IMG/VR virus record: IMGVR_UViG_3300031134_000466
Strand: one strand, 5' to 3'
DNA: 64,000 bases
Origin: a virus
Lineage: Duplodnaviria > Heunggongvirae > Uroviricota > Caudoviricetes
The translations under genes and the position numbers were made by a program. A model generated the notes under the pieces. It ran no database searches, had not been told where the DNA came from, and saw nothing but the letters and a program-made list of their open reading frames with translations. Positions 31,548 through 63,158 of this stretch are shown one piece after another. The first letter of the stretch is position 1. Each line of letters opens with the position of its first letter.

Positions 31548-32480
31548 TTGGTCGGTTTCATTATTTTTGCAGTGATCGCGTTCATCGCTGTTATTGTTTG
31601 GCGTAAATTCTCTAAACAGTCAAAACTTGTCAGTCGCACAGCCGGCGGTGCAGGTGTTCTGTTCGGTCTGATCGCTGCAGCATGCCTGGTAGGGGCTATG
31701 GCGTACACTCAGGACCCTGGTGAGGCTGTTGTGCAGCGTGACACCATCACAGGTAAGATCGTCGGTCAGACGACCACTGAAGGCTTGTACTTCAAAGCTC
31801 CTTGGGTTGACACTGTGACTTTCAACATTCGAAACCAGAAAGTATCTTTCGCTGGAAGTGCTGAGACCGGCTACAACGACAACGCTGGTGGTGCAGCTGA
31901 CGGAGCTCAGGTCACTGTGCAGGACAAAGAAGGTGTTTCTTCCAACATTGACATCACCTTACGTTATTCGATCAAAGCTGATTCAGTGACTGACATCTAC
32001 CGTCAGTTCAAAGATGAAGACAACTTCAAGAGTTCCTTCATTACTCAGGACATCCGTTCCGTAGTTCGTTCAGTGCCAACACAGTTCACAACCCTTGAAC
32101 TCATCACTAAGCGAGGCGAAATCGAAGCTCAGATTCTTGAAGCTTTGGAAGACCGTTGGAAATCAGAAGGCGTCATCATTGATTCAATCTCCTTACAGGA
32201 AATCCGAGTACCTGAAAGCGTGAAAGAAGCTTACGCTTCAGCCCAAGAAGCTCAGATTAACGTTGAGAAAGAACGATCCAACTTGGAAGCTGAAGAAGTG
32301 AAAGCTCAGCAGAAAGTCGCTAACGCTACAGCTGAAGCAGAAGCTAACCGACTGCTTACCGAATCTTTGAACGACAACGTTCTGAAGCAGCGATACCTGG
32401 ACACTTTGAGTGAACTTGGTAAAGACGGTAACGTCATTGTTGTTCCTGAAGGATTCAACGCTTTAGGTTCAATCAAGTAA
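31548..32480 (+). CDS. SPFH/Band-7 (stomatin/prohibitin/HflK-like) membrane protein
   Basis: N-terminal TM helix, SPFH core, C-terminal Ala/Glu-rich coiled coil (EAQINVEKERSNLEAEEVKAQQKVANATAEAEANRLL). Confidence 0.7.
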   Translation: MVGFIIFAVIAFIAVIVWRKFSKQSKLVSRTAGGAGVLFGLIAAACLVGAMAYTQDPGEAVVQRDTITGKIVGQTTTEGLYFKAPWVDTVTFNIRNQKVSFAGSAETGYNDNAGGAADGAQVTVQDKEGVSSNIDITLRYSIKADSVTDIYRQFKDEDNFKSSFITQDIRSVVRSVPTQFTTLELITKRGEIEAQILEALEDRWKSEGVIIDSISLQEIRVPESVKEAYASAQEAQINVEKERSNLEAEEVKAQQKVANATAEAEANRLLTESLNDNVLKQRYLDTLSELGKDGNVIVVPEGFNALGSIK

Positions 32481-34403: not shown

Positions 34404-35891
34404 TTAGCCTACGAAGGTTACTCCAGTAGTGGTTCTGTCATACTGTGTCCATGTTGTTCCGTTGGATGGTCCATAGAAATGGGTAGTCAAACTACCTGTC
34501 TTTGTATCAAACTCCAGAGTTCGTACAGGGTTGGTGGTGTTTGAATGGAATGTTCCCAGGTAAGAAACAATCTTGTTGCCGTTCACTCCCACATCTTCAC
34601 GGTAACCAGCTTCACCGACATGGCCAGATAAGACAACTTTGATGTTTGGGTACTGCTTGACAAGGTTGTCATACACATACTGAGCTGAGTTACTTCCATA
34701 ACTGGCTGACTGGTCAATACTTCCATCACCGTTCAAATACGAATGAGTGGAAACAATAACATTGTAGTCAGGATGTGCAGCTACGACAGTTTTTGCCCAG
34801 TCAACGACCTCAGTGCGTGGCCAGAGTTCCAGAGTCAAAACCAACCACTTTTTGTCAGCAGCGTTGAAAGTCTGGTAAGCATTGTCAACTTTTCCAGTTT
34901 CGAAGGTTGTGATACCTGGGTAACGTGAAGGACTGAAGTAGCTATTGAAAGTGGTGGTGTTTCGCACTAAAGTGCGAGTGTTCTTAGGGTCAGCAGCAGA
35001 ACCGCCAACACCTACAGCAGCTGTATCATGGTTTCCGATGGTAAGAGAATTCTGGATTTTGTTGTCATCTAACACCTTCATGGCTTTGGATGCAACAGCG
35101 TACTGTTCGTGATTTGGAGTATCCCAATTGACGACATCACCAGTATGGTTCACATATCGCAAATCTAAAGCGTTTTTGTTATCAACAAGCCATTGTGTAC
35201 GGTTCACAAATCGAGTGTCTGTTCCAACTTCTTGTTGGGTGTCTGGAATCACAGCCATTGTGAACTTGCCGTCAGCATCAGCAGGATTTACTGGCGGAGT
35301 TGTTGGTGGTGTAACAACAGGGGAAGGTTTAGCTCCGTAGAATGAGATTCCTTCGGCTGCCCAGCCGGCTGTTGTCAGGGCAGTTCTTTCGGCTTCAGTT
35401 GTCGCATAACGATGCTTACCACTTTTTTGGAAACGGTAGACTGGTTGGCTGCCAGAAAGGTTTTTGGTTGAAGCGTAGAAATTGATTCCTTGCTCTGTGT
35501 AACCATATTTACTTTGGGCAACGGCAAGTTCATTAGAGGAAGAAGATTTTGCTATCCAGATGAAATCGCCGTTCTTGTGAAGACGGTAGACTGGCACTAA
35601 CCCTGTTTTTTGGTCGTGGTTAGCTTTGAAAACAATCCCTTTGGTTTCTGTGAAGCCATAGCTGTTTTTAGCACTGTCAATTTCTTTTGAGTTGACAGTG
35701 AGTAGATTAGCTTGGCTTTTAGGGTTGATTGACTGATAAACATCTGTCGTCATTGAAGACAGAATAGATGCATCAGAGGGAGCGGTCGCAGCTGAAGCGG
35801 ATGTAGCTGTAGCGAAAGGTAGAACAAGTGTAGCTAATAGTACGACGCCTAAAGTCCTAAATCGGACAGGTTGCGTTTGATTGTGGTTCAC
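34404..35891 (-). CDS. Secreted metallophosphoesterase with N-terminal tandem ~45-aa repeats
   Basis: Signal peptide; repeats PVYR(L/F)xKxG....Y....E........GW..EGI.FY x2-3; C-terminal AVIPDTQQE, NHTGDVVN, GNHD, STHSY, GHVGE phosphoesterase motifs. Confidence 0.7.
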   Translation of the reverse strand: MNHNQTQPVRFRTLGVVLLATLVLPFATATSASAATAPSDASILSSMTTDVYQSINPKSQANLLTVNSKEIDSAKNSYGFTETKGIVFKANHDQKTGLVPVYRLHKNGDFIWIAKSSSSNELAVAQSKYGYTEQGINFYASTKNLSGSQPVYRFQKSGKHRYATTEAERTALTTAGWAAEGISFYGAKPSPVVTPPTTPPVNPADADGKFTMAVIPDTQQEVGTDTRFVNRTQWLVDNKNALDLRYVNHTGDVVNWDTPNHEQYAVASKAMKVLDDNKIQNSLTIGNHDTAAVGVGGSAADPKNTRTLVRNTTTFNSYFSPSRYPGITTFETGKVDNAYQTFNAADKKWLVLTLELWPRTEVVDWAKTVVAAHPDYNVIVSTHSYLNGDGSIDQSASYGSNSAQYVYDNLVKQYPNIKVVLSGHVGEAGYREDVGVNGNKIVSYLGTFHSNTTNPVRTLEFDTKTGSLTTHFYGPSNGTTWTQYDRTTTGVTFVG

Positions 35892-36526: not shown

Positions 36527-37519
36527 ATGCTTACAGTCTCCTCTTCCCTGAAAAGCTATAAAGCGTCAGGGTTATTCTTTGGGAGTCTACTACTCATACT
36601 GGCAGCGTTTGCTCTACTCCCTAAGAAGAGCTTCACTGGGTTGCTGAATGATTTCTTCATGCTTAGCTTCAGTGTGATTGTTGAATCTGTGCCGTTCTTG
36701 ATCCTGGGTAGCGTCCTTGCTGCACTGGTGCAAATTTTTGTCTCGTTTACCTGGCTGACAAGAATACTCCCTAACAACCCTCACCTGAAACGCTTCTTCC
36801 TGTCATTGTTCGGTGTTTTCTTACCGGTATGCGAATGCGGGAACATTCCTATGGCTCGGGGACTGATGCTAAAAGGATTCACTGTGTCAGAAGCAATGGT
36901 CTTTTTGCTCGCTGCACCCATTGTTAACCCTGTCACCATAATCACAACCCATCAAGCTTTTGGATGGGATTCAGGCATCCTCATTTGCCGTATTTTAGGT
37001 GGACTTGCCATAGCGAACTTCATTGGCTGGCTCTTCTCCCGCCAACAAGATGCAACCCAGTTTCTCACCCCTTCATTCGAACATTCATGTCGAGTTGAAG
37101 CAGGCGTTGTAGAAAAGAAAAGCATTTTCAACATAGCAAACAAAACAGCCTCGGAGCTGATCCTTCTATTCCCAGCTTTGATCGTGGGTGCAGGCATTGC
37201 TGCGTTCATTCAAGTGATTGTACCGAGGAGTACATTGTTAGCCATTGGTGAAGACCCAGTACTCTCAGTTCTTGTTATGCTCCTACTGGGAATCATCGTA
37301 GCAATATGTTCAAACGTGGATTCATTCTTTGCTCTATCATTCGCTAGCACTTTCACGAATGGAAGCCTCATCACATTCCTTCTGGCAGGTCCCTTAGTCG
37401 ATGTGAAGATGATCGCATTGATGAAATCCACTTTCACATCCAGAGCTGTCCTATATATTGTACTACTGGTGGTATGTGCCAGCGTTAGCATTGGGTTAGG
37501 AGTCAATCTTGTCTCTTGA
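36527..37519 (+). CDS. DUF318-family (ArsP-like) permease
   Basis: 8 TM helices and the family's VCECGNIP Cys-x-Cys motif in a loop. Confidence 0.65.
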   Translation: MLTVSSSLKSYKASGLFFGSLLLILAAFALLPKKSFTGLLNDFFMLSFSVIVESVPFLILGSVLAALVQIFVSFTWLTRILPNNPHLKRFFLSLFGVFLPVCECGNIPMARGLMLKGFTVSEAMVFLLAAPIVNPVTIITTHQAFGWDSGILICRILGGLAIANFIGWLFSRQQDATQFLTPSFEHSCRVEAGVVEKKSIFNIANKTASELILLFPALIVGAGIAAFIQVIVPRSTLLAIGEDPVLSVLVMLLLGIIVAICSNVDSFFALSFASTFTNGSLITFLLAGPLVDVKMIALMKSTFTSRAVLYIVLLVVCASVSIGLGVNLVS

Positions 37520-39327: not shown

Positions 39328-40449
39328 TCAGTCAGCAGTTTTTCCGTTCAAGTTCCAGAATGGCTTCTCAAACTCAGGCTGAATCATTTTCCAGATGATG
39401 TCAGAGATTTTCTTCTCAGACCTGGTATCAAAATGACCTCCGCTGTGACGAGAGAATAACAAACCAGTAATGCGTTTGTCTTCTTTCTGTACAGCTGCAG
39501 CGTAGTCCTTCTGAGTGTATCCTTCAGGAAGTTCAGAAAGAATACGGTTGTAAGTTTCCTCAACTGTTGCACGCAATTCAGCATGCTCTGCAAGTAGTCG
39601 GTCACGAGTTGTTTCGACATACTCAACGAACTCATCAGGGAGACCAACAATCCATGAAGTGAAGTCACCGTCAGCTACAAGCAGCTCCCAGATGCGACGC
39701 GAAGAAGCACCTGTGATGACACGGTGAAGCTGAACGTAGTCATCCTGTTTCACTTTCACTCGAACATCACTATCCAGGAAGTGAACAACAACGCCTTCTT
39801 TGTTCTCACGACCAGGAGCGGCCAAAGCTTCAGTAAGGCTGTTGTATTCAAACTGCTCAACCTTCAACCAAGTCCATTCATCAACCTGTGATGCTGGTAC
39901 AGAGCGACCTGTTGCTGTGTTCACTCGGGCAATCAAGATGAGGTCATCCAAATCACCGTAGTTAACAACGATACGGTTTGTAGGGTAGATGATTTCCCAG
40001 ATGTAAGTTTCACCAGCAAGTGGCTCCCATTTTCCGTCGTACAGCTCCTGGTAACGTGCTGTGGCATGCAGAGCCTGCTCAGAGCTGAATGAACCTCGTG
40101 TGGAGATGTTCAGTCGACCAGTTTCAGGGTTTACATATGAAACACCCATAGAACCATCTGCTTTGTCTGTGACAACGATAGGTCCAGTCAGTGCATCCTG
40201 AGGAACATCTGGTTCGCCGTGGTTAAAGAACTTACCAAGAGGGCGGGAGACAATCTCCTGGGTGGAACCGTCAACGATAAGTCCTCGTGAAGCTAATGTT
40301 GCAGCGTTCCAGGCTCGGTCAAACTGGCATACCTGTGAGTAGTCAAAGATAGCCAGGTCAAGCGTAGGGTGAACCTGACGATTGATGTGCTTGTTCTGGA
40401 ATTCAGCTGCCCAAAGTTCAGCAGGAGCGATATCGTAAATGTGTACCAT
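39328..40449 (-). CDS. ATP-dependent RNA ligase (Rnl family), paralog 1
   Basis: Nucleotidyltransferase motif I TDKADGSMG (KxDG), same order of downstream motifs as ORF 54122. Confidence 0.7.
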   Translation of the reverse strand: MVHIYDIAPAELWAAEFQNKHINRQVHPTLDLAIFDYSQVCQFDRAWNAATLASRGLIVDGSTQEIVSRPLGKFFNHGEPDVPQDALTGPIVVTDKADGSMGVSYVNPETGRLNISTRGSFSSEQALHATARYQELYDGKWEPLAGETYIWEIIYPTNRIVVNYGDLDDLILIARVNTATGRSVPASQVDEWTWLKVEQFEYNSLTEALAAPGRENKEGVVVHFLDSDVRVKVKQDDYVQLHRVITGASSRRIWELLVADGDFTSWIVGLPDEFVEYVETTRDRLLAEHAELRATVEETYNRILSELPEGYTQKDYAAAVQKEDKRITGLLFSRHSGGHFDTRSEKKISDIIWKMIQPEFEKPFWNLNGKTAD

Positions 40450-42792: not shown

Positions 42793-44685
<1,893 letters not shown>

Positions 44686-50666: not shown

Positions 50667-50800
50667 GATTCTAATGTTCCTTAATCGTTGTCAGCTTTAT
50701 GAGCGGTCAAAGAATTCTATCATCAACGGCTAAAGCACATAGTATTTGACAGCTGGCTGGGTTTCATGGTAAGTTGGAGTATCTTAAGTTAGGAAACAAA

Positions 50801-51706
50801 ATGTCACAGATAATGCGGATTCACCGTGGAGTGCAAGGCTCTGGTAAATCCACAGAAGCCATCCGTTGGGTGAACCAGGACCCGTTAAACCGTGCCCGTG
50901 TGAACCGTGATGACATTCGTCTCAGCCAGTTCGGCTCCTACGAGCTTCCTCAGGAACTCGAAGTTGCTGTTACCAAAGTAGAGCATGCCATCATCACCGC
51001 ACTTCTTGCTGCACGCAAAAGTGTTGTTGTTGACAATGTGAACCTGAAAGCCAAGTACGTTAAAGAGTACCTGCTTATTGCGGAGAAAGCCAACGTACCT
51101 GTTGTGCATCAGGACTTCCCTGTGGAGTTGGAGACAGCTCTTGCTCGTAACGCTGCTCGTGACCGTAAAGTCCCTGCACATGTGATTGAGACAACATTCA
51201 AGCGTTACATTCAGAGTGGCAAGTTCCCTCCGTTCCCCGTACTTGACTACGAAGCCGCTGCAGCAGGAATCTATGTTCCTGATGAGACTCTGCCTAAAGC
51301 TATCCTTTTGGATGTTGACGGCACAGCCATGAAGATGGGTTCACATCGTGGACCGTTTGACTGGCACAAAGTCATTGATGACGAGCCTAACCCGCCTGTT
51401 GTTGAAACAGTAAAAGCTTTGCATGCTCAGGGCTACAAAGTTGTTGTCATGTCTGGTCGTGATGAAGTCTGCAAAACAGACACGTTACTTTCTCTGGAAG
51501 TAGCTGGTGTTCCTGTGGATGAAATCTACATGAGACCCCACAACGATTACCGTAAAGACAACATCATCAAGCGTGAACTTTTTGATGCTCACATTCGGGA
51601 GCGTTTCAACATCCTGTTAGCTTTGGATGACCGGAACCAGGTTGTGGACGCTTACCGTCGTGAGCTGGGTCTTCCTGTCTTTCAGGTTGACTACGGAGAC
51701 TTCTAA
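50801..51706 (+). CDS. Polynucleotide 5'-kinase/3'-phosphatase (T4 Pnkp architecture)
   Basis: N-terminal P-loop GVQGSGKST and kinase core, C-terminal HAD phosphatase LLDVDGT ... MSGRDE ... LDDRNQ; ATG 50801 with AGGAAA RBS. Confidence 0.8.
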   Translation: MSQIMRIHRGVQGSGKSTEAIRWVNQDPLNRARVNRDDIRLSQFGSYELPQELEVAVTKVEHAIITALLAARKSVVVDNVNLKAKYVKEYLLIAEKANVPVVHQDFPVELETALARNAARDRKVPAHVIETTFKRYIQSGKFPPFPVLDYEAAAAGIYVPDETLPKAILLDVDGTAMKMGSHRGPFDWHKVIDDEPNPPVVETVKALHAQGYKVVVMSGRDEVCKTDTLLSLEVAGVPVDEIYMRPHNDYRKDNIIKRELFDAHIRERFNILLALDDRNQVVDAYRRELGLPVFQVDYGDF

Positions 51707-51757: not shown

Positions 51758-52729
51758 TTAAATTTCTCGCAGCTGCACAATTGTCAGTTCAGTTGCTTCA
51801 CCTTTTTTATTGACCCTTTTGACTTTCACATCATTAGCAACAACTTCGAATTTTGCACCACGAGGAATGATGAACTCATACTCTCTTGGACCTTGCGATG
51901 AAATAGCTGTGATTGGGGCTCCACTTTTTGTAAGAATCTGTAAAGAAACATTGATGTTGTCTTTGGAAGGTAAATCTTGAGGATTCAAACTTGTCGATAA
52001 GAAGAATTTAGGTTCGTAAGTGCTACCAACAGGGAAATGTTTGTCGAGGTTTTGAGCGTCATCACTTGAATGATATCCTTTTTCATCATAAAGATGATGA
52101 CGGCGGTAAACCATCACGCCTTCTTCTGCTGGTTCGTGTTTAGCAAAAGCATCATCCAGGATAGTTACAGCTGCATCCAACGTTTCAGGTGCAACATTTT
52201 TTGCGTACGGATTTGTTGAAGCTGAAAGATGGCCGTTGATGTCAGCATAGCCATCTTCTGAATACCAGCGAAGAGTAGCTATTTCAGTATCATCCAGTTT
52301 GGCACTCCAGTTTTGGGAATCTGCCATGCTGTTCAACAGGTCAGCATGTTTGTAATGCATCTCTTCAAGAGTGTCACCAGTTTCGAAAAACGTCGGAGAA
52401 GTGTAAGCAGCTTTTTGTGCTTTTTTGTGGGTGATGACTTTACGATCCGCAACAGCAGCTAATCTTCTGGCTCGTTCTTGAGAAAGCGCTTCGTATTCTT
52501 CTGCATGCCATTCCTGCGTTGGATTCTTTTTGATCTGTCTTTCCAAAGACTTTAGATAAGCTGGTGTTAGTTTGTACTCTGCTTCAGCTTTTCTTCTTAC
52601 CGCTATTAGCTTCTCAAGCTCTGGGTCTTTGCGGTTGTCCATGAAAGCACTGAGAACCGCTTGATGAGCTTTAGCGTAGGTGGCTGCAGCATGAGCTGAA
52701 CAACGGGGACCAGGTTTTGGGTAACACAT
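51758..52729 (-). CDS. Mono-ADP-ribosyltransferase (R-S-E class) with N-terminal MCYPKPGPRCSAHA module
   Basis: Arg motif MVYRRH, classic STS motif FLSTSLN, catalytic PREYEFIIPRGAKFEVV (E-x-E); N-terminal 100 aa paralogous to ORF 30500. Confidence 0.7.
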   Translation of the reverse strand: MCYPKPGPRCSAHAAATYAKAHQAVLSAFMDNRKDPELEKLIAVRRKAEAEYKLTPAYLKSLERQIKKNPTQEWHAEEYEALSQERARRLAAVADRKVITHKKAQKAAYTSPTFFETGDTLEEMHYKHADLLNSMADSQNWSAKLDDTEIATLRWYSEDGYADINGHLSASTNPYAKNVAPETLDAAVTILDDAFAKHEPAEEGVMVYRRHHLYDEKGYHSSDDAQNLDKHFPVGSTYEPKFFLSTSLNPQDLPSKDNINVSLQILTKSGAPITAISSQGPREYEFIIPRGAKFEVVANDVKVKRVNKKGEATELTIVQLREI

Positions 52730-54121: not shown

Positions 54122-55363
54122 ATGTCAACTACAAGAAAACCTCCTTATCATCACAGCGATGGTACAAACTGCTGGACTAAAGATTGTTCGATCAGAGGCC
54201 GTGAAGATACAGAAAAAGCTGCTTTCTTCAAGCAAGTAGAAACAGCTGCTGAGACTGTTGTTCCAACCAATGAATTGCCTCCTCTGTCAGCTTTTCAGAA
54301 AGCCTATGATGATGGTCGCATTGAGTGCAGCCGCCACCCTGAACATCCTTATGTGACTTACAAGTATTCCAGAACAACTCAGTTTGCTTCTGACTGGGAT
54401 GATGTGACCTTAGCGTCTCGTGGTGTCATCTTCAATGAGGAGACAGGCGAGATTGTTGCTCGTCCATTTGCTAAGTTCTTCAACCATAACGAACCGTCAG
54501 TTCCCAGAGACAAATTACATGGCCGTATTAGTGTAACTGACAAGCTGGACGGTTCTTTAGGAATTGGTTATGTTGATGAGAACGGTAAGTTCAACATTGC
54601 AACCTCTGGAAGCTTTATCTCTGAACAGGCAAAACGTTCTACAGAGCTCTATCATGAGCGTTATGAAGGCAACTGGAAGCCAAATCCTAAGTTGACCTAC
54701 ATGTGGGAAATCATCTACCCAGAAAATCGTGTCGTGGTCAACTATGGCGATGAAGATGACTTGCATCTCATCGGTGCTGTCAACAAACGAACTGGTAAAT
54801 CAGTTCCGTTGCGTGACATCAAAGAATGGAAGTGGAAAAGAGCTGAAGAGTACAAAGACTTCTCCTCCTTGGATGCTGTTCTTCACTCTCCTGAAAGAGA
54901 AAACCGTGAAGGTTTCATTGTTCATTACATCGATACTGATACCCGCGTGAAATACAAGCATGCAGATTATCTTGAGCTCCATCGTAACCGTACTGGCGTG
55001 ACTTCCAAAACTATCTGGCGTAAAATGCGTATGGGTGAAGATATGGCAGGTTGGAAAGAGAACATGCCTGAAGAGTTCAGTGAGTTCGTATCCACTCGTC
55101 AAGCTAAAATCACTGCCGGATATAACAAAGAAATTGCCCAAATTACTGATGAGCATGGCACTTTCAAAGCAACTCTTCCTGCTGGTTATGACCGTAAGAC
55201 TTTTGCTACCACTTTGAAAAACTCACCTCTTGTACCAGCCGAAAACAAAGCTTTCGTCATGAACCTTGAGTTCAACGGCAGTGCTGTTGGAAGTGTTGTT
55301 CAATCTCATAAGATTTGGGACCGTGTGAAACCTGAGGACGAGAACACCTTGTGGAACATGTAA
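54122..55363 (+). CDS. ATP-dependent RNA ligase (Rnl family), paralog 2
   Basis: Motif I TDKLDGSLG; collinear with ORF 39328 (SRG..F..E....ARP.AKFFNH.EP, GSF.SEQA, YMWEIIYPENRVVVNYGD, REG.VVH). Confidence 0.7.
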   Translation: MSTTRKPPYHHSDGTNCWTKDCSIRGREDTEKAAFFKQVETAAETVVPTNELPPLSAFQKAYDDGRIECSRHPEHPYVTYKYSRTTQFASDWDDVTLASRGVIFNEETGEIVARPFAKFFNHNEPSVPRDKLHGRISVTDKLDGSLGIGYVDENGKFNIATSGSFISEQAKRSTELYHERYEGNWKPNPKLTYMWEIIYPENRVVVNYGDEDDLHLIGAVNKRTGKSVPLRDIKEWKWKRAEEYKDFSSLDAVLHSPERENREGFIVHYIDTDTRVKYKHADYLELHRNRTGVTSKTIWRKMRMGEDMAGWKENMPEEFSEFVSTRQAKITAGYNKEIAQITDEHGTFKATLPAGYDRKTFATTLKNSPLVPAENKAFVMNLEFNGSAVGSVVQSHKIWDRVKPEDENTLWNM

Positions 55364-55652: not shown

Positions 55653-55746
55653 CTTGGACCTCCTAATTTTAAATCGGCTGATTATTTTACGAATTGTACT
55701 GTAATTATAGTCATTCTGACGATAAAGATGGTATGATTAGGATGTT

Positions 55747-56412
55747 ATGAAGAACACATACGGAATTCTCGGCGGATATGGGGCGGTAGCCACCCTACAT
55801 CTCCAGCAGCTGCTCGTGAAGCGAGTCCTCAGCACTGGACAGTACGCTGATATTGCCTTCCCTCGTATGGTAATTTCCAATCTGCCTGAAGACATCATCA
55901 ATGCTGAAGGACATATCAGCAGCCTTGGTAGCCTGCGGACTGAACTTGGTAAAACAGCTCCTCTATTCCAAGGAGCCACAGATGTTTATGTCATTTGTAA
56001 CACCTTCCATGTCGAAGAAGAGTTCATGCAGCGAGTCTTCGCTAACAAACTACATTCTGTTCCGGCTTTAACCAGTCAAGCTGTCGTAGATGCTGGATAC
56101 TCCAAACCTCTTATCGTAGGTTCCAAGCTGACTTCTCAGGATAACCTGTACAGTCATACAGCTTACACCTCAACTAACATGTTTGCGGATGAGCTAATCA
56201 CTGCTGGAATGAAGTACCAGACATCTCACTCTCAGCTGGCAGATGTCATAGCTGCTGCCAAACAGGCTAGCTCAGACTGCATTGTTTTAGGTTGCACAGA
56301 TTTGTCCGTGATGGCTGACACTCTCCGAACCATGACTGCACTTCCCGTAATCGACTCCGTTGAAGCAGTCGCCAACCATATTTACAACTCCCATACGAAA
56401 GATGAATCGTGA
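55747..56412 (+). CDS. Asp/Glu/hydantoin racemase-family protein
   Basis: N-terminal ILGGYGAVATLH (GGMG-type motif) and second-half VLGCTDLS (GCTE-type) with the two catalytic-Cys-region positions. Confidence 0.65.
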   Translation: MKNTYGILGGYGAVATLHLQQLLVKRVLSTGQYADIAFPRMVISNLPEDIINAEGHISSLGSLRTELGKTAPLFQGATDVYVICNTFHVEEEFMQRVFANKLHSVPALTSQAVVDAGYSKPLIVGSKLTSQDNLYSHTAYTSTNMFADELITAGMKYQTSHSQLADVIAAAKQASSDCIVLGCTDLSVMADTLRTMTALPVIDSVEAVANHIYNSHTKDES

Positions 56413-57374
56413 AAGTCTACAACGACACAGTAACCATGACTGCAGAGCTGGCTCAGACCTTAGAGCAATTGAGAGCTGTGCGGGCTTTTGACGCTACAGA
56501 ATGGATTGAGCGTAAGGTTGTCCTAATCAACCAGTACTTCGCTCAGAACAAGCTCTCAGGGGCTGTAGTAGGTGTTTCTGGTGGCATCGACTCAGCTGTA
56601 GCCCTTTCACTTCTTGTCAAAGCATCCCAGCAAGACAACAGCCCAATTCAGAAGATTGTCCCTCTTCTACTTCCTGCTCTTTCTTACGAAGGTGCAACTA
56701 ACCAAGACGGGGCAGTTCAGCAGGCTACTGACCTATGCCAGAACCTTGGACTGAAGCCAGCTGTTTTCACTAAGCTCACATCTCTTTCCCAAGTGATTAC
56801 TTCTGAACTGGAAGACATTCTGGACATCAAATCAACAGACTGGGCTAAAGGACAGCTAGTGGCTTACACCAGAACCCCAGTCCTGTACAACACCTGCTCA
56901 ATCCTTACTGACGCCGGCTACCCTGCACTGGTTGTAGGAACCACAAACCTTTCCGAAGGTGGATACCTCGGTTATGTCGGAAAAGCTTCAGATGGTATGG
57001 TTGACCTGCAAGTAATTTCTGATTTGTACAAGTCAGAAGTGTACAAAGTCGCAGCTTTACTTGAAGTTCCTGAAAGCGTTATGAAAGCTACTCCTACAGG
57101 GGACATGTACGACGGTCGTGAAGATGAAACAGTTTTCGGAGCTTCTTACGACTTCGTAGAGCTGTTTCATCTATGGCTACAGGCACGCAGCGTCCCATTG
57201 AAACTTCTTCGAGATGCCCACTTTGTCACAGGAGCTAAAAACCTGCAAAAACTGCACGACTACAACGCACATAAGTACACCTACGGAACTCCATCCATTC
57301 ACCTGGACATTATGAACGCAGCAATCCCAAACGGATGGAACAATCAGCCTTGGAGGCCCCAGAATGGCAACTAA
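56409..57374 (+). CDS. Divergent NAD+ synthetase (NadE)-like PP-loop amidotransferase
   Basis: PP-loop VGVSGGIDSAVA; GTTNLSEGGYLGYVGKASDGMVDLQVISDLYKSEVYKVA matches NadE GT.N.SE...GY.TKYGDG..D..P; 4-nt overlap with upstream gene. Confidence 0.7.
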   Translation: MKVYNDTVTMTAELAQTLEQLRAVRAFDATEWIERKVVLINQYFAQNKLSGAVVGVSGGIDSAVALSLLVKASQQDNSPIQKIVPLLLPALSYEGATNQDGAVQQATDLCQNLGLKPAVFTKLTSLSQVITSELEDILDIKSTDWAKGQLVAYTRTPVLYNTCSILTDAGYPALVVGTTNLSEGGYLGYVGKASDGMVDLQVISDLYKSEVYKVAALLEVPESVMKATPTGDMYDGREDETVFGASYDFVELFHLWLQARSVPLKLLRDAHFVTGAKNLQKLHDYNAHKYTYGTPSIHLDIMNAAIPNGWNNQPWRPQNGN

Positions 57375-58104
57375 ATTCGTAAACCAAGTCAACTTCGAAA
57401 TCCCTACTGTTGCTCACACAGTTCAAGTGAGACCGTTCCCTGAACTTGACCGTACAGCGGTAGTGATTCCTGAACTCGTCCCTGCCGAGGAAAAAGTCAG
57501 TATCATGGCAGCGTTGGAAGACTCCAACTGGCAGCCAGTGTCAGTGACAGGAATGTCAGGAAACTGGAAAGAAGGTGACCCTATTGGTTCTTACCGTGCT
57601 TCCAACTACACTCCTGAGTATGCTGAAGTTCTGTGGAACAGAATCAAACACGGTTTCCCTACTGTACGCACATTCACAGATGCTGATAACACCGACTTCG
57701 ATGGTCATGAGCTGTGGGAACCCATTGGCGTGTCACCTCTTCTTCGATTCATCAAATATGAAGAAGGCGGCTGGCTTGTAGTTCATTACGATGCTCCGTA
57801 TGTCGAATCAGAAGATGTTCGCACACTCCAAAGCCTTGTCGTATATCTGGAACACCCAGGTGAACTTCACGGAGGAGCAACCCGCTACCTTCATGACCCT
57901 CAGGCTCATCTTCCTGTTACTCAGCGTGAACTCAACGACGAATACCGTGCTGCTGAAGAAGATGAAGTGAGACTCCGCTTCGCTCCTGAAGATGGAACAG
58001 CTGTAGTCTTCGACCACCGCCTTCTGCATGACGCTGAAAAGGTCACAGGAACTGGCACAAAAACAATCATTCGAACAGACATTATGTACAGGAAAGTACG
58101 ATGA
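57364..58104 (+). CDS. 2OG-Fe(II) oxygenase-superfamily-like protein
   Basis: HYDAPY (HxD) and downstream His (LEHPGELHGG) with distal RxS-like region; weak call. Confidence 0.4.
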   Translation: MATKFVNQVNFEIPTVAHTVQVRPFPELDRTAVVIPELVPAEEKVSIMAALEDSNWQPVSVTGMSGNWKEGDPIGSYRASNYTPEYAEVLWNRIKHGFPTVRTFTDADNTDFDGHELWEPIGVSPLLRFIKYEEGGWLVVHYDAPYVESEDVRTLQSLVVYLEHPGELHGGATRYLHDPQAHLPVTQRELNDEYRAAEEDEVRLRFAPEDGTAVVFDHRLLHDAEKVTGTGTKTIIRTDIMYRKVR

Positions 58105-59624
58105 ATTTAGACAGATACTTCCAGGCTCTTTACGAAAGAACCAATAGTAAGCAGGACTTAGTAACAGCAGGTTGGATTGAAAACAAGCCGCTACGCATCA
58201 ACCCGCATGTGCGATTCTACACAACCCCTCTGCAAGCTATTCGTGACGCGGGCAAAAAGGACGTATCTGTCTTGTTCTACCCTGGTTGTTTCGCTCCAGT
58301 CCATGAAGGTCACCTTGGGGCTATGAGGCTGGCCAAAGAAGCAATTGAAACCCAGACAGGCGAGACTGTAGCTGCAGGCTATTTCACCCCTGACCATGAT
58401 AACTACATCATGCGTAAAACTCATGACGAACGTTTCATCGCACCTAACCGCATCGCTCTTCTCCATGAAGCAGTAGAAAATGAACCCTGGATGCAGGTGG
58501 ACGACTGGGCTTCACTGTACGCTCCCACTGATTTGAACTTCACAACACTATATGACAGGTTCAACCTTTACCTGAAGCGTTGGTTACCTGACTTGAACAT
58601 CAAGCTGTACATGGTTTTTGGTGGAGACAACTACATGTTTGCGAACAGTTTCACTGAATACGGACACGGTGTTTGTGTGCCAAGAGAAGGAGCTCAGATG
58701 GACTTGAGCTTAGTTCACCCTGATGCCAAAAAGCGGGTTATTTTCAGCGAAAAAGTCTGTACAGACCATTCTTCTACAGCTGCACGAGCAGCAAACCCTG
58801 GAGCTATCGATATCCACGGCAGAAGTGCATTAGGTTCCACCTATGTACTTCGTGAAGACTTGGACTTAGCTTTCCGAGAGAACCCTACTACTTACTCGAA
58901 CAAAATTATTGCTGACTCTGTAGCTATTCTTTTGCAGGCGCATGTGCCGTACGAGAAAGTCAAAGTGAAAAGAGTTCCCATTATCAGGCAGATGGCTAAC
59001 CATACTGAGACAGAGAATGTGATTTCCTTAGACTGTTTCTGGAAAGCAGAGCAGAACCTTGAAATTTCTCGCCTGTTTTCAACTGGAGGCAGTCAGCACC
59101 ATGCCATCAAATACGTCAACCGTCCTGGCTCGCCGGCTCTTCAAGAGCAGGTAGAAGCAATTCCTGCTGGAGTGTACACTCTCGTAGATGATGACATTGC
59201 TACTGGGGAGACAATGAGTTTTGTTTCCAACATGCTGGAAACGCACGATGTTGTTGTTGATAAGCAGGACAGCCTGATTTCCGAGCTGGGTTCTGACTTG
59301 TACGATGTAGTTGATTTGCGAGACTTTGTTCTTGGAACCGAACACGGCGGACTGACGGTTGCAACTCCTACAGGAGAAACGACAAGAATGCCTTACATCG
59401 CTCCTTATGTGAATCTTGTAAGCCGTGCTCGCATTAACCCTGACCGGGTGTTCAGTTTCTCCACCGAACTGTGGAAATTGAACTATGCACTTTACCGTAA
59501 TACGAAAACTACAGTAGGTGACATCAAAGAACATCAGGACTTCACCATGTTCGGTTTTGCCGAAGACATGACAGTGGCTGACTTGTGCCAAAAGCATCTT
59601 CAATTGATGACTGAATTGCAGTAA
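58101..59624 (+). CDS. Bifunctional NMN/NaMN adenylyltransferase (NadM-type) fused to a type I phosphoribosyltransferase-like domain
   Basis: Nucleotidyltransferase (H/T)xGH motif FYPGCFAPVHEGH and C-terminal SSTAARA motif; second domain with PRPP-binding loop VYTLVDDDIATGETM. Confidence 0.7.
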   Translation: MNLDRYFQALYERTNSKQDLVTAGWIENKPLRINPHVRFYTTPLQAIRDAGKKDVSVLFYPGCFAPVHEGHLGAMRLAKEAIETQTGETVAAGYFTPDHDNYIMRKTHDERFIAPNRIALLHEAVENEPWMQVDDWASLYAPTDLNFTTLYDRFNLYLKRWLPDLNIKLYMVFGGDNYMFANSFTEYGHGVCVPREGAQMDLSLVHPDAKKRVIFSEKVCTDHSSTAARAANPGAIDIHGRSALGSTYVLREDLDLAFRENPTTYSNKIIADSVAILLQAHVPYEKVKVKRVPIIRQMANHTETENVISLDCFWKAEQNLEISRLFSTGGSQHHAIKYVNRPGSPALQEQVEAIPAGVYTLVDDDIATGETMSFVSNMLETHDVVVDKQDSLISELGSDLYDVVDLRDFVLGTEHGGLTVATPTGETTRMPYIAPYVNLVSRARINPDRVFSFSTELWKLNYALYRNTKTTVGDIKEHQDFTMFGFAEDMTVADLCQKHLQLMTELQ

Positions 59625-59641
59625 GATGATAGACATGATGC

Positions 59642-60238
59642 ATGCTTGAAATACTTACAGCGGTAGGTCTTGCTTTAGCGGCAGGGTTGAACGCTTACAT
59701 TCCTCTGATTGCTGTCAGTTTGTTATCAAAGTTCACTGATTTTTTCACTCTTCCAGGAAACTGGTCATGGATGGAAGACAACTGGACATTAGCGATCTTG
59801 ATTGCTTTAGCTTTAGTAGAGTTCTTTGCTGACAAAATAGCTGCAGTTGACTCGTTGAATGATGTCATCCAAACAGCAGTCCGTCCAACATCAGGCGGAT
59901 TGCTGTTTGCTGCAGGTACCCATGTAACAGATGTTCCTGTGACTCAGATTAGTAATTTTGTGAGTTCTCCAGGCTTTCCTATGTTCATCATTGGTTTGAC
60001 TGTTGCTTTGCTTCCTCATTTGATGAAGATGTTCATCAGGCCGCTTATTAACGCAACGATGAGTGGAATGGTGACACCCATTGTCAGTTTTGGTGAAAAC
60101 ATTCTTACAGTAGGTTTGGTTGCTATGGCTATATTCATTCCAGTGCTGGTACCAGTAGCAGTAATACTGGTCATTGTTATAGGAGTACGGATTTTCCGAA
60201 ACCTCACCGCGAAAAAGAGTAAAACAGCAACAGCCTGA
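59642..60238 (+). CDS. DUF4126-like membrane protein
   Basis: LALAAGLNAYIPLIAVSLL ... LVEFFADKIAAVDSLNDVIQTAVRPTSGGL matches the DUF4126 pattern from memory. Confidence 0.45.
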   Translation: MLEILTAVGLALAAGLNAYIPLIAVSLLSKFTDFFTLPGNWSWMEDNWTLAILIALALVEFFADKIAAVDSLNDVIQTAVRPTSGGLLFAAGTHVTDVPVTQISNFVSSPGFPMFIIGLTVALLPHLMKMFIRPLINATMSGMVTPIVSFGENILTVGLVAMAIFIPVLVPVAVILVIVIGVRIFRNLTAKKSKTATA

Positions 60239-60330: not shown

Positions 60331-61548
60331 ATGGTGCAAAAACCAGAACGCGGGCGTTACTTAGAGCTTGAAGGTGTACGTGTTTCGTATAAACACAAAG
60401 ATGATTCCATCCACCTCACAGCAACAGACCCAGATGTTCCTCAGATAAACATCACCCTAAACAAAGGGACAGCGACAGAAGATTCGCTTAGAGATTTGCT
60501 CGTAGAGTACGGTTTAATTAGAGAATCAGAGTCTAATGCTGTTACCGAAATGGAACCTATCCCATATTACGCGGGTAACCCATTCTCAGCATTGCTGGCA
60601 GAATCACATATCCCGTCAGACAGAGCCAAGAACATTCTTCTTACAGGACAGCCAGGTTCAGGTAAAACCGTGGCCGCATCCTATGCAGCATTTCTTGCAC
60701 AAGGAATGAACATGCCTACTTTCGTCATGGGGCTTGCAGTTGACTATCTGAAAACGCTCAATGAAGACACCCAGGTTCTGATGCTGACAAAAATGGAATC
60801 AGGCTACCTGAATCCATTCAAAACAAAAATGTCAACAGAGCAGATTCTTCACTTTATCAACACTTTGACACTTCCAAGAGATGCTTACTATCAAGCACGA
60901 GCAAACCAGACGATAACAACACTCATCAAACAACAGTATGAAACTAAGCAGCCTTCATTGACTGGACTGCTACAAGTAATCAGCAAGTATGAAGAACTCC
61001 AATATGAAACAGCTGCTCTTTCCCATTTGGGTCTTAGCCCTGTAGGAGCTCCATTCTTTGGATACTCAGAGAACGTATTAGTGATTGATCCTGACAAGGA
61101 TTATGTCTTTGATGCCGCTGAAGTTCCGCTTGTAGCACCAGTAGAAGCATTGGACACTACTCAGGCAAGACAGAACACTGCAATCATTCAAGCAGTGTTC
61201 CATTTTGTTAGACAGCATTCACGACCAAGTAGTCAACCAAAAATGCTGATTGTCGACGGGAGGAATTACCAGTATGTTACTGAACTGAACCAGCTCAGTA
61301 GGTTAGCCCGAAGCCTAAATTTGGTTATGCTCACAGTAGGTGAACTTGAAGAAAATAACAGTCAATACTCTGACTTCATGGCTTACCGCTCTTCAACCGC
61401 AGAGACATCTGAACTTTTTGGTAAAAGGCTTGACACGCTTTCTTCAGGTCAATCTTATTGGAGAAACGAAGACGGAGAGGTCTTCTTTGTCCCTCGACCT
61501 ACCCTTCCAGCATCGTTTGCAAGAATTTTTGACACAATACCCAGATAA
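60331..61548 (+). CDS. P-loop NTPase of unknown function
   Basis: Walker A LLTGQPGSGKTVAAS; Walker B-like LIVIDPD/MLIVDG. Confidence 0.45.
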   Translation: MVQKPERGRYLELEGVRVSYKHKDDSIHLTATDPDVPQINITLNKGTATEDSLRDLLVEYGLIRESESNAVTEMEPIPYYAGNPFSALLAESHIPSDRAKNILLTGQPGSGKTVAASYAAFLAQGMNMPTFVMGLAVDYLKTLNEDTQVLMLTKMESGYLNPFKTKMSTEQILHFINTLTLPRDAYYQARANQTITTLIKQQYETKQPSLTGLLQVISKYEELQYETAALSHLGLSPVGAPFFGYSENVLVIDPDKDYVFDAAEVPLVAPVEALDTTQARQNTAIIQAVFHFVRQHSRPSSQPKMLIVDGRNYQYVTELNQLSRLARSLNLVMLTVGELEENNSQYSDFMAYRSSTAETSELFGKRLDTLSSGQSYWRNEDGEVFFVPRPTLPASFARIFDTIPR

Positions 61549-62238: not shown

Positions 62239-62312
62239 TCACAAAAACGTGCTTTTTCGTCAATATGACGATATACTGTAATAAGAATGGTCTAAGGAAG
62301 GAAACCCGTATC

Positions 62313-63158
62313 ATGACCAAGCTCCAGAAACAGATTATTAACACTCTTGGGGTAAAACCCGTCATCAATGCCGAACAGGAGCTACGCACTCGTGTAGATT
62401 TCCTCAAAGACTTCACCCGTAATGCTGGCACCAGAGGATTTGTACTTGGAATCAGTGGTGGACAGGACTCTGCTCTTGCCGGCTACATTGCACAGACAGC
62501 TGTCCGTGAACTCCGCGACGAGACGGGTGAGAACTACCAGTTCTTAGCTCTTCTTCTTCCTTACGGGACTCAGAAAGACGCTGATGATGCAATCACCATC
62601 GCCCGTGACTTCATCAAGGCTGACCAGGTAATTGAGTACAACATCAAGCCTGCAGTGGATGCTTTCACTGACCAGTACAATGACATCGCTGGCTGGTCAG
62701 GCGATGAAGCTGATAACCTCAGCGATTACCATAAAGGTAACGTCAAAGCCCGCACCCGTGCCGTAACACAGTACGCTTACGCTGGTACCCATCAGCTGCT
62801 TGTTGTAGGTACAGACCATGCTGCTGAGGCAGTATCAGGCTTCTTCACCAAGTTCGGTGACGGTGCAGCTGACGTTCTCCCTTTGAGCGGTTTGAACAAA
62901 CGTCAGGGCAAAGAGCTTCTTCGCTTGGCAGGTGCTCCCGAGTTCGTCATCACCAAAGCTCCCACAGCGGACCTTCTGGACAACAAAGCAGGTCAGGCTG
63001 ATGAGACTGAGCTGGGTATTACATACGATGTTCTTGACGACTACCTTGAAGGTAAAGATGTCAATGTAGTTGCAGCTCAGAAAATTGAACTGCGTTACCT
63101 GATGACAGAACACAAGCGTCAACTCCCAGTTGACCCTGCAGCAACATGGTGGAAGTGA
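62313..63158 (+). CDS. nadE: NH3-dependent NAD+ synthetase
   Basis: Near-collinear with E. coli NadE from the N-terminus ([34 protein letters not shown]...[13 protein letters not shown]); ATG 62313 with AAGGAAGG RBS. Confidence 0.9.

Follow-up and report, generated by a model that had tools for sequence, protein, structure and literature searches.

A phage-borne fusion of an NMNAT-class adenylyltransferase and a type I phosphoribosyltransferase-like domain in a conserved module that probably makes NAD or a closely related compound

The window analyzed in this study is a stretch of 64,000 nucleotides from a caudoviricete virus record (IMGVR_UViG_3300031134_000466). The gene of interest is the fourth of four overlapping genes, which encode an Asp/Glu-racemase-like protein, a NadE paralog, a 2OG-Fe(II) oxygenase and the fusion protein ( Table 1 ). 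Since their start and stop codons overlap, the four genes were regarded as an operon: the stop of the racemase-like gene overlaps the start of the NadE paralog by 4 nt, and the oxygenase gene overlaps its two neighbours by 11 nt and 4 nt. The promoter candidate is the single promoter-like match on the plus strand between positions 55300 and 60400, and it was graded as suggestive because the match count in the region was below the shuffle expectation. The window also encodes consumers of NAD, a PARP and several ADP-ribosyltransferases (ARTs). No phage structural genes or tRNAs were found in the window; its gene content and its relatives point to a phage origin.

Table 1. Features of the operon and its surroundings, in window coordinates.
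Feature	Position	Strand	Evidence or remark
Sigma-70-like promoter candidate (extended -10), directly before the operon	55708..55737	+	suggestive match
Asp/Glu-racemase-like protein, 221 aa, operon gene 1	55747..56412	+	Pfam Asp_Glu_race E 1.2e-9
NadE paralog, PP-loop NAD-synthetase-like, 321 aa	56409..57374	+	Pfam NAD_synthase E 1.4e-31
P4H-like 2OG-Fe(II) oxygenase, 246 aa	57364..58104	+	Pfam 2OG-FeII_Oxy_3 E 5.9e-8, PhyH 7.3e-5
NMNAT/PRTase-like fusion, 507 aa	58101..59624	+	ATG-to-stop ORF
N-terminal helical extension, ~52 aa, specific to the fusion family	58101..58256	+	alignment and model
NMNAT/NadD-class adenylyltransferase domain, aa ~53-232	58257..58796	+	
GCFAPVHEGH, GxFxPxH/TxxH ATP-binding motif of the NMNAT domain	58284-58313	+	
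HSSTAAR, (I)SSTxxR motif of the NMNAT domain	58767-58787	+	
Divergent type I PRTase-like domain, aa ~246-507	58836..59621	+	
PRPP loop VYTLVDDDIATGETM	59172-59216	+	
DxRDF, motif specific to the fusion family	59313-59327	+	
DUF4126 membrane protein, 18 nt downstream of the fusion	59642..60238	+	Pfam DUF4126 E 7e-45
Second, canonical NH3-dependent NadE, 2.6 kb downstream	62265..63158	+	NCBIfam NF001979 346.9 bits (cutoff 250); Pfam NAD_synthase E 1.1e-65

The racemase-like protein matched the NCBIfam models of amino-acid racemase and CuyB, both under threshold, and aspartate racemase 1jfl in the PDB (E 1.2e-7). It carries two Cys motifs, ICNTFH and LGCTDL. It recurs upstream of the module at seven other loci (L004, L019, L028, L040, L041, L044 and L065 of Variovorax) and is an accessory member of the module. 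The NadE paralog has no glutaminase domain. Its score against TIGR00552 (107.6 bits) exceeds the cutoff of 63.65 and is far under the full-length equivalog cutoffs, and its top PDB matches are P. horikoshii NadE (1.6e-17) and 3FIU, the NMN synthetase of Francisella (7.2e-17). The paralog shares 21-30% identity with canonical NadE, as against 40-50% with the module copies in other phyla. The active site of the oxygenase is intact, and its residues H141, D143, H222 and R237 do not vary among 16 homologues. The nearest solved structures are prolyl-4-hydroxylases, matched only at E~0.02-0.03, and no characterised close relative was found. Downstream of the operon, the DUF4126 gene is kept only in the closest relatives (L001 and L002) and in L070, a Logan contig with the window's own sequence, and is absent at the other loci; its membership in the module is doubtful. 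L001 and L004 likewise carry the canonical NadE close to the module.

The original prediction had described the fourth gene as a fusion of an NMN adenylyltransferase and a type I phosphoribosyltransferase (PRTase)-like domain. The present analysis confirmed this, with exact ORF boundaries and both motif sets present. Full-length matches were obtained in 44 protein clusters at 30-100% identity, and the ORF is therefore not due to chance. In an alignment of 33 members, which share ~30% identity overall across phyla, 40 columns are invariant and fall mainly within the motifs predicted to form the active sites of the two halves. The AlphaFold2 model shows two domains with confidence (pLDDT 91.1, pTM 0.90). 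In the N-terminal extension, D4 and G24 are invariant in the alignment, and helices were modelled at residues 5-14 and 17-22. A profile search with the C-terminal domain against 1.84 billion proteins returned 1,149 representative clusters (E<=1e-3), 531 of them at E<=1e-30, and the PRT-like domain occurred almost only C-terminal to NMNAT. We conclude that the gene encodes a genuine fusion of two predicted enzymes, an NAD-building adenylyltransferase and a very divergent phosphoribosyltransferase.

The NadM/NadD-type motifs expected at residues ~50-230 were both found. G62, F64, P66, H68, G70 and H71 of the N-terminal motif and S225 and R229 of the C-terminal motif are invariant in the 33 members. 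Both fold and sequence are nearer to NMNAT/NadD than to other nucleotidyltransferases. The protein passes the general Pfam model CTP_transf_like (35.7 vs 21) and stays under the curated NadD equivalog thresholds (TIGR00482, 37.9 bits vs a cutoff of 112.45; other NadD models, far below their cutoffs). Only the general model is passed, and this half is a distinct subfamily among the NMNAT/NadD nucleotidyltransferases. Its nearest relatives are the eukaryotic NMNATs, which use NMN as well as NaMN.

A PRPP-binding loop had been placed within residues ~240-507, and VYTLVDDDIATGETM indeed fits the pattern of a hydrophobic beta-strand, two acidic residues and xxTGxT. L361, D363, D364, D365 and G369 are invariant in the 33 members, and the loop aligns with those of APRT, ComF, HPRT and OPRT. 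The match of the domain to PRTase models is weak: the Pfam model Pribosyltran (PF00156) does not match the fusion protein of the window and matches 14 of 24 family members only weakly, at best with E 3.9e-4; the score of P0045 is 22.1 bits, under the cutoff of 26.3. Foldseek against the PDB gave noise-level matches only. Only ~100-123 of 272 residues superpose on type I PRTases. The fusion resembles the type II PRT barrel of NadV/Nampt, PncB, NadC and Namat neither in sequence nor in fold.

The original prediction had also considered that the second domain might be a pyrophosphokinase like PRPP synthetase or Adps, which would make PRPP or ADPR-PP as in the chemistry of NARP1. This part was not supported. 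The AlphaFold2 model contains a single PRT-type core in the C-terminal half and not the two tandem PRT-like domains of those enzymes. Prs ranked lower than the base PRTases, and hhalign against E. coli Prs covered 32 columns only (prob 43%). We therefore regard this reading as extremely improbable. Another explanation is that the PRT-like half has no catalytic role and serves as a ligand-sensing or oligomerisation domain that binds PRPP, a nucleotide or (p)ppGpp and regulates the NMNAT half, for which PyrR, PurR and ppGpp-bound PRTases offer parallels. However, ~20 polar residues outside the PRPP loop, among them six arginines and DxRD, stay the same throughout the 33 members at ~30% identity, as is typical of active sites. 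The alignment with APRT runs on upstream of the PRPP loop, into the region where the catalytic flexible loop of APRT is situated. In addition, the module has no other PRTase as a source of the mononucleotide. A purely regulatory role thus seems very unlikely.

The gene neighbourhood was compared at 66 loci from megaphages, CPR, Clostridia, Myxococcota, Legionella, Leptospira, Variovorax and Streptomyces; the carriers include Leptospira interrogans and gut Clostridia. The NadE paralog adjoins the fusion at 58 of the 66 loci, spanning phages and at least eight bacterial phyla, and is better conserved than the fusion itself (40-50% vs ~30% identity). Of these 58 NadE-linked modules, 57 have a single H-abstracting enzyme, which is the 2OG oxygenase or belongs to one of two radical-SAM families; two in one module were never seen. 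The oxygenase (27/66 loci) is joined to the NadE paralog in a protein of ~590 aa at about six loci. At 11 loci, including Legionella shakespearei (1,118 aa) and P0131, NadE, 2OG oxygenase, NMNAT and PRT form a single ORF. Modules with the oxygenase, which depends on O2, occur in Proteobacteria, Myxococcota, Actinomycetota and megaphages, whereas those with a radical-SAM enzyme occur in CPR and Clostridia and in viral contigs of human-associated (HMP/gut) origin; the split follows lifestyle. We read the ORF after the Legionella gene as a putative nitrilase-type CN-hydrolase-like protein; a domain of this type is contained in Gln-dependent NadE. NrtR-type regulators adjoin the module at six loci (L021, L041 and L044 of CPR, L006 of Clostridia, L040 of Gammaproteobacteria and L064 of Leptospira), and NrtR genes generally cluster with NAD genes (PMC2330246).

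Searches of the region against deposited phages gave no match at the nucleotide or protein level, and hence there is no cultured phage model. An anti-phage defence system was also considered for the module and rejected for lack of PADLOC support: in PADLOC-DB v2, the fusion, the NadE paralog and the racemase-like protein matched no defence model, and the oxygenase and the c3 radical-SAM enzyme showed just generic 2OG and pVip similarity.

The domain identities, the conservation of active-site motifs, the gene linkage and the gene fusions are directly supported. On these grounds, the module probably makes NAD, or a compound closely akin to it, through a pathway so far undescribed. We give about an even chance to the fusion being a bifunctional pyridine-nucleotide assembly enzyme inside the conserved module, for which we infer every substrate and product. 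In the first step, the type I PRTase-like domain, in place of the unrelated type II enzyme PncB, would couple a pyridine base that bears a carboxylate, nicotinate being the simplest candidate, with PRPP to give NaMN. The NMNAT domain would then adenylylate the mononucleotide with ATP to the dinucleotide (NaAD), and the translationally coupled NadE paralog would amidate the carboxylate to yield NAD+. The last two steps may also run in the Francisella order, NaMN to NMN to NAD, since the NadE paralog is as close to 3FIU as to any NaAD-specific NadE. The oxygenase, or the radical-SAM enzyme in anaerobes, would add one more, presumably oxidative step. In the phage, the pathway might keep up NAD for its own PARP and ARTs, against NAD-depleting host immunity, or both. 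The model is supported by the invariant catalytic motifs of both halves (33 members), the linkage of the NadE paralog, the four-domain Rosetta-stone fusions, and the NrtR and canonical NadE genes nearby.

Another scheme is two-step nicotinamide salvage, in which the PRT-like domain is an analogue of Nampt (Nam + PRPP to NMN), the NMNAT domain makes NAD+ as in NARP2 or NadV-NadM, and the genes alongside have functions of their own. At six jumbo-phage loci the fusion stands without module partners, with both motif sets complete and 37 of the 40 invariant residues retained; the neighbours there have no Pfam annotation. The kinship with eukaryotic NMNATs also fits two-step salvage. Nicotinamide is, moreover, the precursor that NADases would release in phages and at the Leptospira island, where the module adjoins a TIR-domain protein and an Abi gene. 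On the other hand, the NadE paralog, often coupled or fused, is conserved beyond the fusion itself, and an amidase step is useless where the base is already an amide. We consider nicotinamide salvage rather improbable.

A different possibility is that the product is not plain NAD+ but a non-canonical adenine dinucleotide of a pyridine or other base, or a nucleotide-derived metabolite. The H-abstracting enzyme would either form the base or make it aromatic, or else alter the (di)nucleotide at its base or ribose. Tailoring of the product would fall to the racemase-like, ATP-grasp, GNAT and methyltransferase-like genes. The near-constant presence of one of three unrelated H-abstracting enzymes, split by lifestyle, would be accounted for, as would the oxygenase being part of the same polypeptide at some loci. 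A C-terminal GNAT domain is joined to the fusion in P0049, ATP-grasp and c2 genes recur in the modules of Clostridia, CPR and Legionella, and the c3 radical-SAM enzyme is weakly similar to the nucleotide-modifying MoaA and viperin. However, all three core domains are nearest to NAD-pathway enzymes, and NrtR regulators and a canonical NadE lie close by. CPR bacteria and phages are unlikely makers of elaborate secondary metabolites, and the minimal viral modules lack the tailoring genes. We see this reading as possible, if on balance unlikely.

Also unlikely, in our view, is an undescribed route to a nicotinamide dinucleotide in which radical or oxidative chemistry puts in the amide nitrogen or the pyridine ring, or which leads to an NADase-resistant analogue. 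To install the amide, the racemase-like or decarboxylase-like enzymes might provide an amino acid, which the NadE paralog would ligate to the carboxylate of nicotinate; the 2OG oxygenase, or in anaerobes a RaSEA-like or MoaA-like radical-SAM enzyme, could then remove the alkyl group to leave a primary amide, with RaSEA in archaeosine synthesis as the model for the cleavage. An orthogonal analogue, in turn, would be immune to NADase effectors and usable by the PARP and ARTs of the phage.

NAD biosynthesis is considered fully mapped, and to our knowledge the pyridine phosphoribosyltransferases described so far (PncB, NadC, NadV, Namat) are all of the type II fold. A type I PRTase acting on a pyridine base would, if true, be a new enzyme activity, and the fusion with its dedicated NadE paralog and oxidative partner would represent a non-orthologous replacement or a new branch of NAD synthesis. 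The family is not marginal, since it is found in CPR with minimal metabolism, gut Clostridia, the pathogen Leptospira interrogans, Legionella, Streptomyces, Variovorax and jumbo/mega-phages. The module is a candidate for a fourth phage NAD-supply strategy, in a genome with a PARP and several ARTs. Since cultured carriers exist, its function is directly testable; WP_146039542.1 of Variovorax and WP_000659088.1 of Leptospira are orthologues of the fusion.

No description of the fusion or module was found in full-text searches of the literature on NAD pathways and phage NAD reconstitution. We take nrtX/nrtY, two NrtR-regulated genes, to be a RES/Xre toxin-antitoxin pair. Rodionov 2008 gives them as unknown genes, without sequences, for other taxa and not for Leptospira. 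A study of NAD pathways in jumbo phages lists only standard ones with nadD, nadE, pncB, NAMPT and nadR/nadM (PMC11662467). The Preiss-Handler pathway (PncB, NadD, NadE) shares the three proposed chemical steps with the module, and its NadD/NMNAT and NadE are homologous to the corresponding module components. Unlike PncB, NadC and NadV, which are of the type II fold, the PRTase of the module is type I-like and fused with the adenylyltransferase, its NadE is a separate paralog that shares ~25% identity with the canonical enzyme, and an oxygenase or radical-SAM enzyme, absent from Preiss-Handler, is nearly always present.

Type I PRTases such as APRT, HGXPRT and OPRT lack the large family-specific N- and C-terminal elements of the fusion, and DxRDF, the further PRTase-domain motif GGL and the six invariant arginines set its family apart from them. 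NadR (NMNAT and NR kinase) and NadM-Nudix likewise join NMNAT to the enzyme of a neighbouring step. Francisella NadE (3FIU) is as near to the NadE paralog as any NaAD-specific NadE; Francisella uses PncB/NadC and NadM and is not known to use an NMNAT-PRTase fusion.

Like the module, NARP1 (Adps and Namat), NARP2 (Nampt and NMNAT) and NARP3 (PnuC and NadR) are compact phage-borne sets for building NAD. An NMNAT-type or PRPP-type step is common to all, and NAD-depleting immunity and heavy use of NAD by the phage are the likely shared selective pressure. NARP3 was considered as an earlier description of the module and rejected, because it consists of PnuC and NadR. Family scans of the operon found no NARP partner components; the NMNAT-class domain alone is in common. 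The three NARPs contain no type I PRTase-NMNAT fusion, NadE paralog or oxidative enzyme (10.1101/2024.02.11.579819; PMC13464706). The module, unlike NARP1-3, is also common in bacterial chromosomes.

The window contains a 507-codon open reading frame with an ATG start that spans exactly 58101-59624 (+), the fusion gene. The motifs quoted for it in the original prediction were located at 58284-58313 (GCFAPVHEGH), 58767-58787 (HSSTAAR) and 59172-59216 (VYTLVDDDIATGETM). Full-length homologues in public metagenomes and MAGs form 44 clusters of 30-100% identity, mostly unnamed, with a few annotated as 'nicotinic acid mononucleotide adenylyltransferase' or as 'hypothetical protein'. A 33-member alignment showed 40 invariant columns in two groups, one per protein half, and the AlphaFold2 model showed two confident domains (pLDDT 91.1, pTM 0.90) joined by a short linker of low confidence (residues 240-242). 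The ORF is a conserved gene.

In the N-terminal half, residues ~53-232 matched Pfam CTP_transf_like (E 1.2e-8). The top NCBIfam model was the NaMN/NMN adenylyltransferase TIGR00482, at a score well under its cutoff. The family profile matched solved NMNATs (9rpk, E 6.5e-22; human NMNAT1 and NMNAT3, ~1e-15), whereas cytidylyltransferases and PPAT appeared at E>0.05 only; the NMNAT identity proposed originally is therefore preferred to an unrelated cytidylyltransferase. Since both NMNAT signature motifs are also invariant in the 33-member alignment, this half is assigned, by profile and motif, to the NMNAT/NadD class as a divergent member. It belongs to neither the NadM nor the NadR class.

Evidence on the C-terminal half is weaker, though consistent. 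Residues ~246-507 of the window protein have no Pfam match; among 24 family members, Pribosyltran was found below threshold in 14 (best E 3.9e-4) and PRTase_2 in six. A Foldseek search of the PDB gave no significant match. In the region of the PRPP loop, the family profile matched APRT, ComF, HPRT, OPRT and Prs (PRPP synthetase; best E 0.017), in agreement with the type I PRTase-like domain predicted originally. That prediction had left a PRPP-synthetase-like pyrophosphokinase beside it, but hhalign gave E. coli APRT a probability of 79% over 62 columns and E. coli Prs 43% over a 32-column loop only. We concluded that this half is nearer to base-transferring PRTases than to pyrophosphokinases, and a pyrophosphokinase is highly improbable. 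About 20 polar residues beyond the loop are invariant, including R251, D311, R324, Q332, R341, D405, R407, D408, R429 and R442. They favour an active site over a module that only binds, and a non-catalytic PRT-like domain is accordingly quite unlikely. Taken together, the results identify this half as a strongly diverged type I PRTase homologue that carries large additions peculiar to its family. When 1.84 billion representative proteins were searched with the domain profile, 1,149 clusters were found (531 at E<=1e-30). The domain is almost always C-terminal in them, either in NMNAT fusions of 500-640 aa or in proteins of 1,050-1,200 aa.

Four consecutive genes in the window overlap at their stop and start codons, and the fusion is the fourth; a promoter-like site lies upstream of the first, racemase-like gene (see table). 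The DUF4126 and P-loop NTPase genes that follow are conserved with L001, another fusion-encoding locus, and not with other loci. Pairing of a canonical NadE with the divergent operon paralog was also seen in L001 and in locus L004.

Features of the window
Feature	Position	Strand	Remarks
SNF2-type helicase	43-1527	+	
DUF285 repeat protein	2847-4235	+	
Class Ia RNR small subunit	12332-13324	+	
YqaJ/RecE-like + RNase T exonuclease fusion	14395-16512	-	
dNMP-kinase-like N-terminus + C5 cytosine DNA methylase	18430-21147	+	905 aa; methylase apparently split by Hint/intein
Wzy_C O-antigen-ligase-like protein	21882-23186	+	
WGR + PARP catalytic domain, poly/mono-ADP-ribose polymerase-like	26372-27676	+	Pfam PARP E 2.4e-29
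ADP-ribosyltransferase (ADPrib_exo_Tox)	28539-29579	+	E 4.9e-4
ADP-ribosyltransferase (ADPrib_exo_Tox)	30500-31465	+	E 2e-15
SPFH/Band7 protein	31548-32480	+	
Metallophosphatase with DUF5648	34404-35891	-	
ArsP permease	36527-37519	+	
Two T4 Rnl1-type RNA ligases and PNKP-type kinase/phosphatase	39328-40449, 54122-55363, 50774-51706	-, +, +	RNA-repair set
Hsp70/DnaK homologue	42826-44685	+	Full-length; Pfam E 5e-232
ADP-ribosyltransferase (ADPrib_exo_Tox)	51758-52729	-	E 8.7e-21
Asp/Glu-racemase-like gene	55747-56412	+	First gene of operon
NadE paralog	56409-57374	+	Second gene of operon
P4H-like 2OG-Fe(II) oxygenase	57364-58104	+	HxD...H triad and 2OG-binding Arg invariant among homologues
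Fusion	58101-59624	+	Last gene of operon
DUF4126 membrane protein	59642-60238	+	Directly 3' of fusion
P-loop NTPase	60331-61548	+	Weak STAND/AAA and PADLOC mad8 matches; after DUF4126 gene
Canonical NH3-dependent NadE	62265-63158	+	Second NadE in window; NF001979 347 bits, above cutoff; 2.6 kb downstream of fusion

We collected 66 non-redundant fusion-encoding loci. They include metagenomic contigs of 0.44-0.88 Mb, 18 IMG/VR contigs (mostly 130-465 kb) and 41 bacterial genomes or MAGs from Clostridia, six CPR lineages, Myxococcota (including the cultured Paraliomyxa miuraensis), Legionella shakespearei, Chthonomonadales and several Proteobacteria. Also included are replicons of cultured Variovorax, Streptomyces, Leptospira interrogans and Paenibacillus, on which the fusion is annotated 'hypothetical protein'. 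The NadE paralog adjoins the fusion in 58 of the 66 loci. Its copies from different phyla share 40-50% identity, against ~30% for copies of the fusion, and its identity to canonical NadE is only 21-30%. In 57 of these 58 loci there is exactly one hydrogen-abstracting enzyme, and two never occur together. In 27 loci it is a 2OG oxygenase. In another 23, from Clostridia and human-associated (HMP/gut) viral contigs, it is c3, a MoaA/viperin-like radical-SAM protein that frequently shows translational coupling to the NadE paralog. The remaining seven, which comprise five MAGs of CPR, one of Pseudomonadales and a single viral contig, carry c11, a RaSEA-like radical-SAM protein. The O2-dependent oxygenase goes with aerobic lineages and the radical-SAM enzymes go with anaerobic lineages, which would be the pattern usual for non-orthologous replacement between aerobic and anaerobic enzymes.

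Gene fusions reinforce this linkage. NadE, 2OG oxygenase, NMNAT and PRT domains form one ORF in 11 loci (e.g. L035:6234-9590 of Legionella shakespearei, 1,118 aa, and, as a separate example, P0131), NadE-2OG fusions some 590 aa long are present in about six, and family member P0049 is an NMNAT-PRT-GNAT fusion. The fusion stands alone, without the module, in one clade of six jumbo-phage contigs, where it keeps 37 of the 40 invariant residues.

Other neighbours also recur. NrtR-type regulators (Nudix plus NrtR winged helix) flank the module in CPR (L021, L041, L044), Clostridia (L006), Gammaproteobacteria (L040) and Leptospira (L064), the Leptospira copy being 42% identical to a CPR copy. The nrtR genes cluster mostly with NAD genes, and some govern pentose use (PMC2330246). 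A cyanophycin-synthetase-like ATP-grasp ligase and c2, an uncharacterised protein, recur in Clostridia, CPR and Legionella. The conserved Clostridia cluster (MAG loci L005-L020, L024 and L038) comprises a DAP-decarboxylase-like PLP enzyme, c3, the NadE paralog, the fusion, a GNAT protein, a second radical-SAM enzyme (SPASM-type c7), an uncharacterised 616-aa protein and c2; the upstream ORFs c15 and c18 looked, by eye, like replication-type genes. Of this cluster, the human-associated viral contigs compared (L055-L063) retain c3, the NadE paralog and the fusion only. In Legionella, the ORFs after the four-domain gene look, on inspection, like a nitrilase-type CN-hydrolase, a SAM methyltransferase and a PhyH-type oxygenase. 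In L. interrogans sv. Bataviae p1 (L064, 8823-13246), the NrtR-nadE-2OG-fusion operon has as neighbours a tyrosine recombinase (integrase), an HNH endonuclease, a TIR-domain protein and a putative Abi protein, which places this putative NAD-building module in an apparent mobile defence island. The module is also carried by a 359-kb 'plasmid' of Paenibacillus thiaminolyticus (L067) and the 816-kb 'plasmid 2' of Variovorax (L065). Most genes on these replicons are hypothetical, but FtsH, IF-3, RNase H, a macro domain protein and SmpB are encoded too, and from this gene content the two may be giant phage-plasmid-like elements.

The window itself is likely part of a very large phage or phage-like element. 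Its nearest relatives sit on 0.7-0.9 Mb metagenomic contigs, and it is rich in ORFans and in large-phage-type genes (RNR, RecE-like exonuclease, helicases, T4-type RNA ligases with PNKP, an intein-containing methylase and Hsp70). No tRNAs or recognisable phage structural genes were found anywhere in the 64 kb, and a nucleotide search against deposited phages gave no match. The DUF285, Wzy_C, ArsP, SPFH/Band7 and DUF5648 genes are of cell-envelope or membrane type, unusual for a phage. The NAD operon is closely preceded by the second RNA ligase, a synteny kept in L001, where a ClpB-like AAA+ chaperone is also near the module. One PARP-WGR protein and two to three ADP-ribosyltransferases suggest that the element is a heavy NAD consumer.

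The three constant domains match the Preiss-Handler steps one-to-one, and the nicotinate route is therefore the most economical explanation. The PRTase-like half would convert nicotinate and PRPP to NaMN in place of PncB, the NMNAT half would convert NaMN to NaAD, and the NadE paralog would convert NaAD to NAD+. Since this paralog resembles the NMN synthetase 3FIU no less closely than any other NadE, the Francisella order (NaMN to NMN to NAD) would be equally possible. That the module is a NAD assembly line whose PRT half acts catalytically on a pyridine carboxylate is the leading view, at about even odds. The almost constant presence of the NadE paralog implies a base with a carboxylate; direct salvage of nicotinamide by the fusion, which had been raised originally, is unlikely. 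The nicotinate route does not explain the oxygenase or radical-SAM partner, which clearly belongs to the module. This partner may make or aromatise the base, or, if the NadE paralog first ligates an amino acid where ammonia would normally go, it may strip off an N-alkyl group oxidatively. The latter reading draws on analogies with RaSEA in archaeosine synthesis and with PurC/PurB. It may also modify the nucleotide to give a NAD analogue; a product other than NAD, or an analogue of it, is a less favoured candidate.

We infer every function assigned here to the module from sequence, and on this footing it would represent a new form of NAD(-like) nucleotide assembly that could realistically conceal new chemistry. 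Public annotation calls its parts 'NAD(+) synthase', '2OG-Fe(II) oxygenase' and 'hypothetical protein', and a full-text search of the literature on NAD pathways and phage NAD reconstitution found no description of the fusion or module. The components of the phage pathways NARP1-3, and those in the jumbo-phage NAD survey, differ from those of the module. The Preiss-Handler pathway has the three steps proposed for the module, which differs from it by its type I-like PRTase and its oxygenase or radical-SAM partner.
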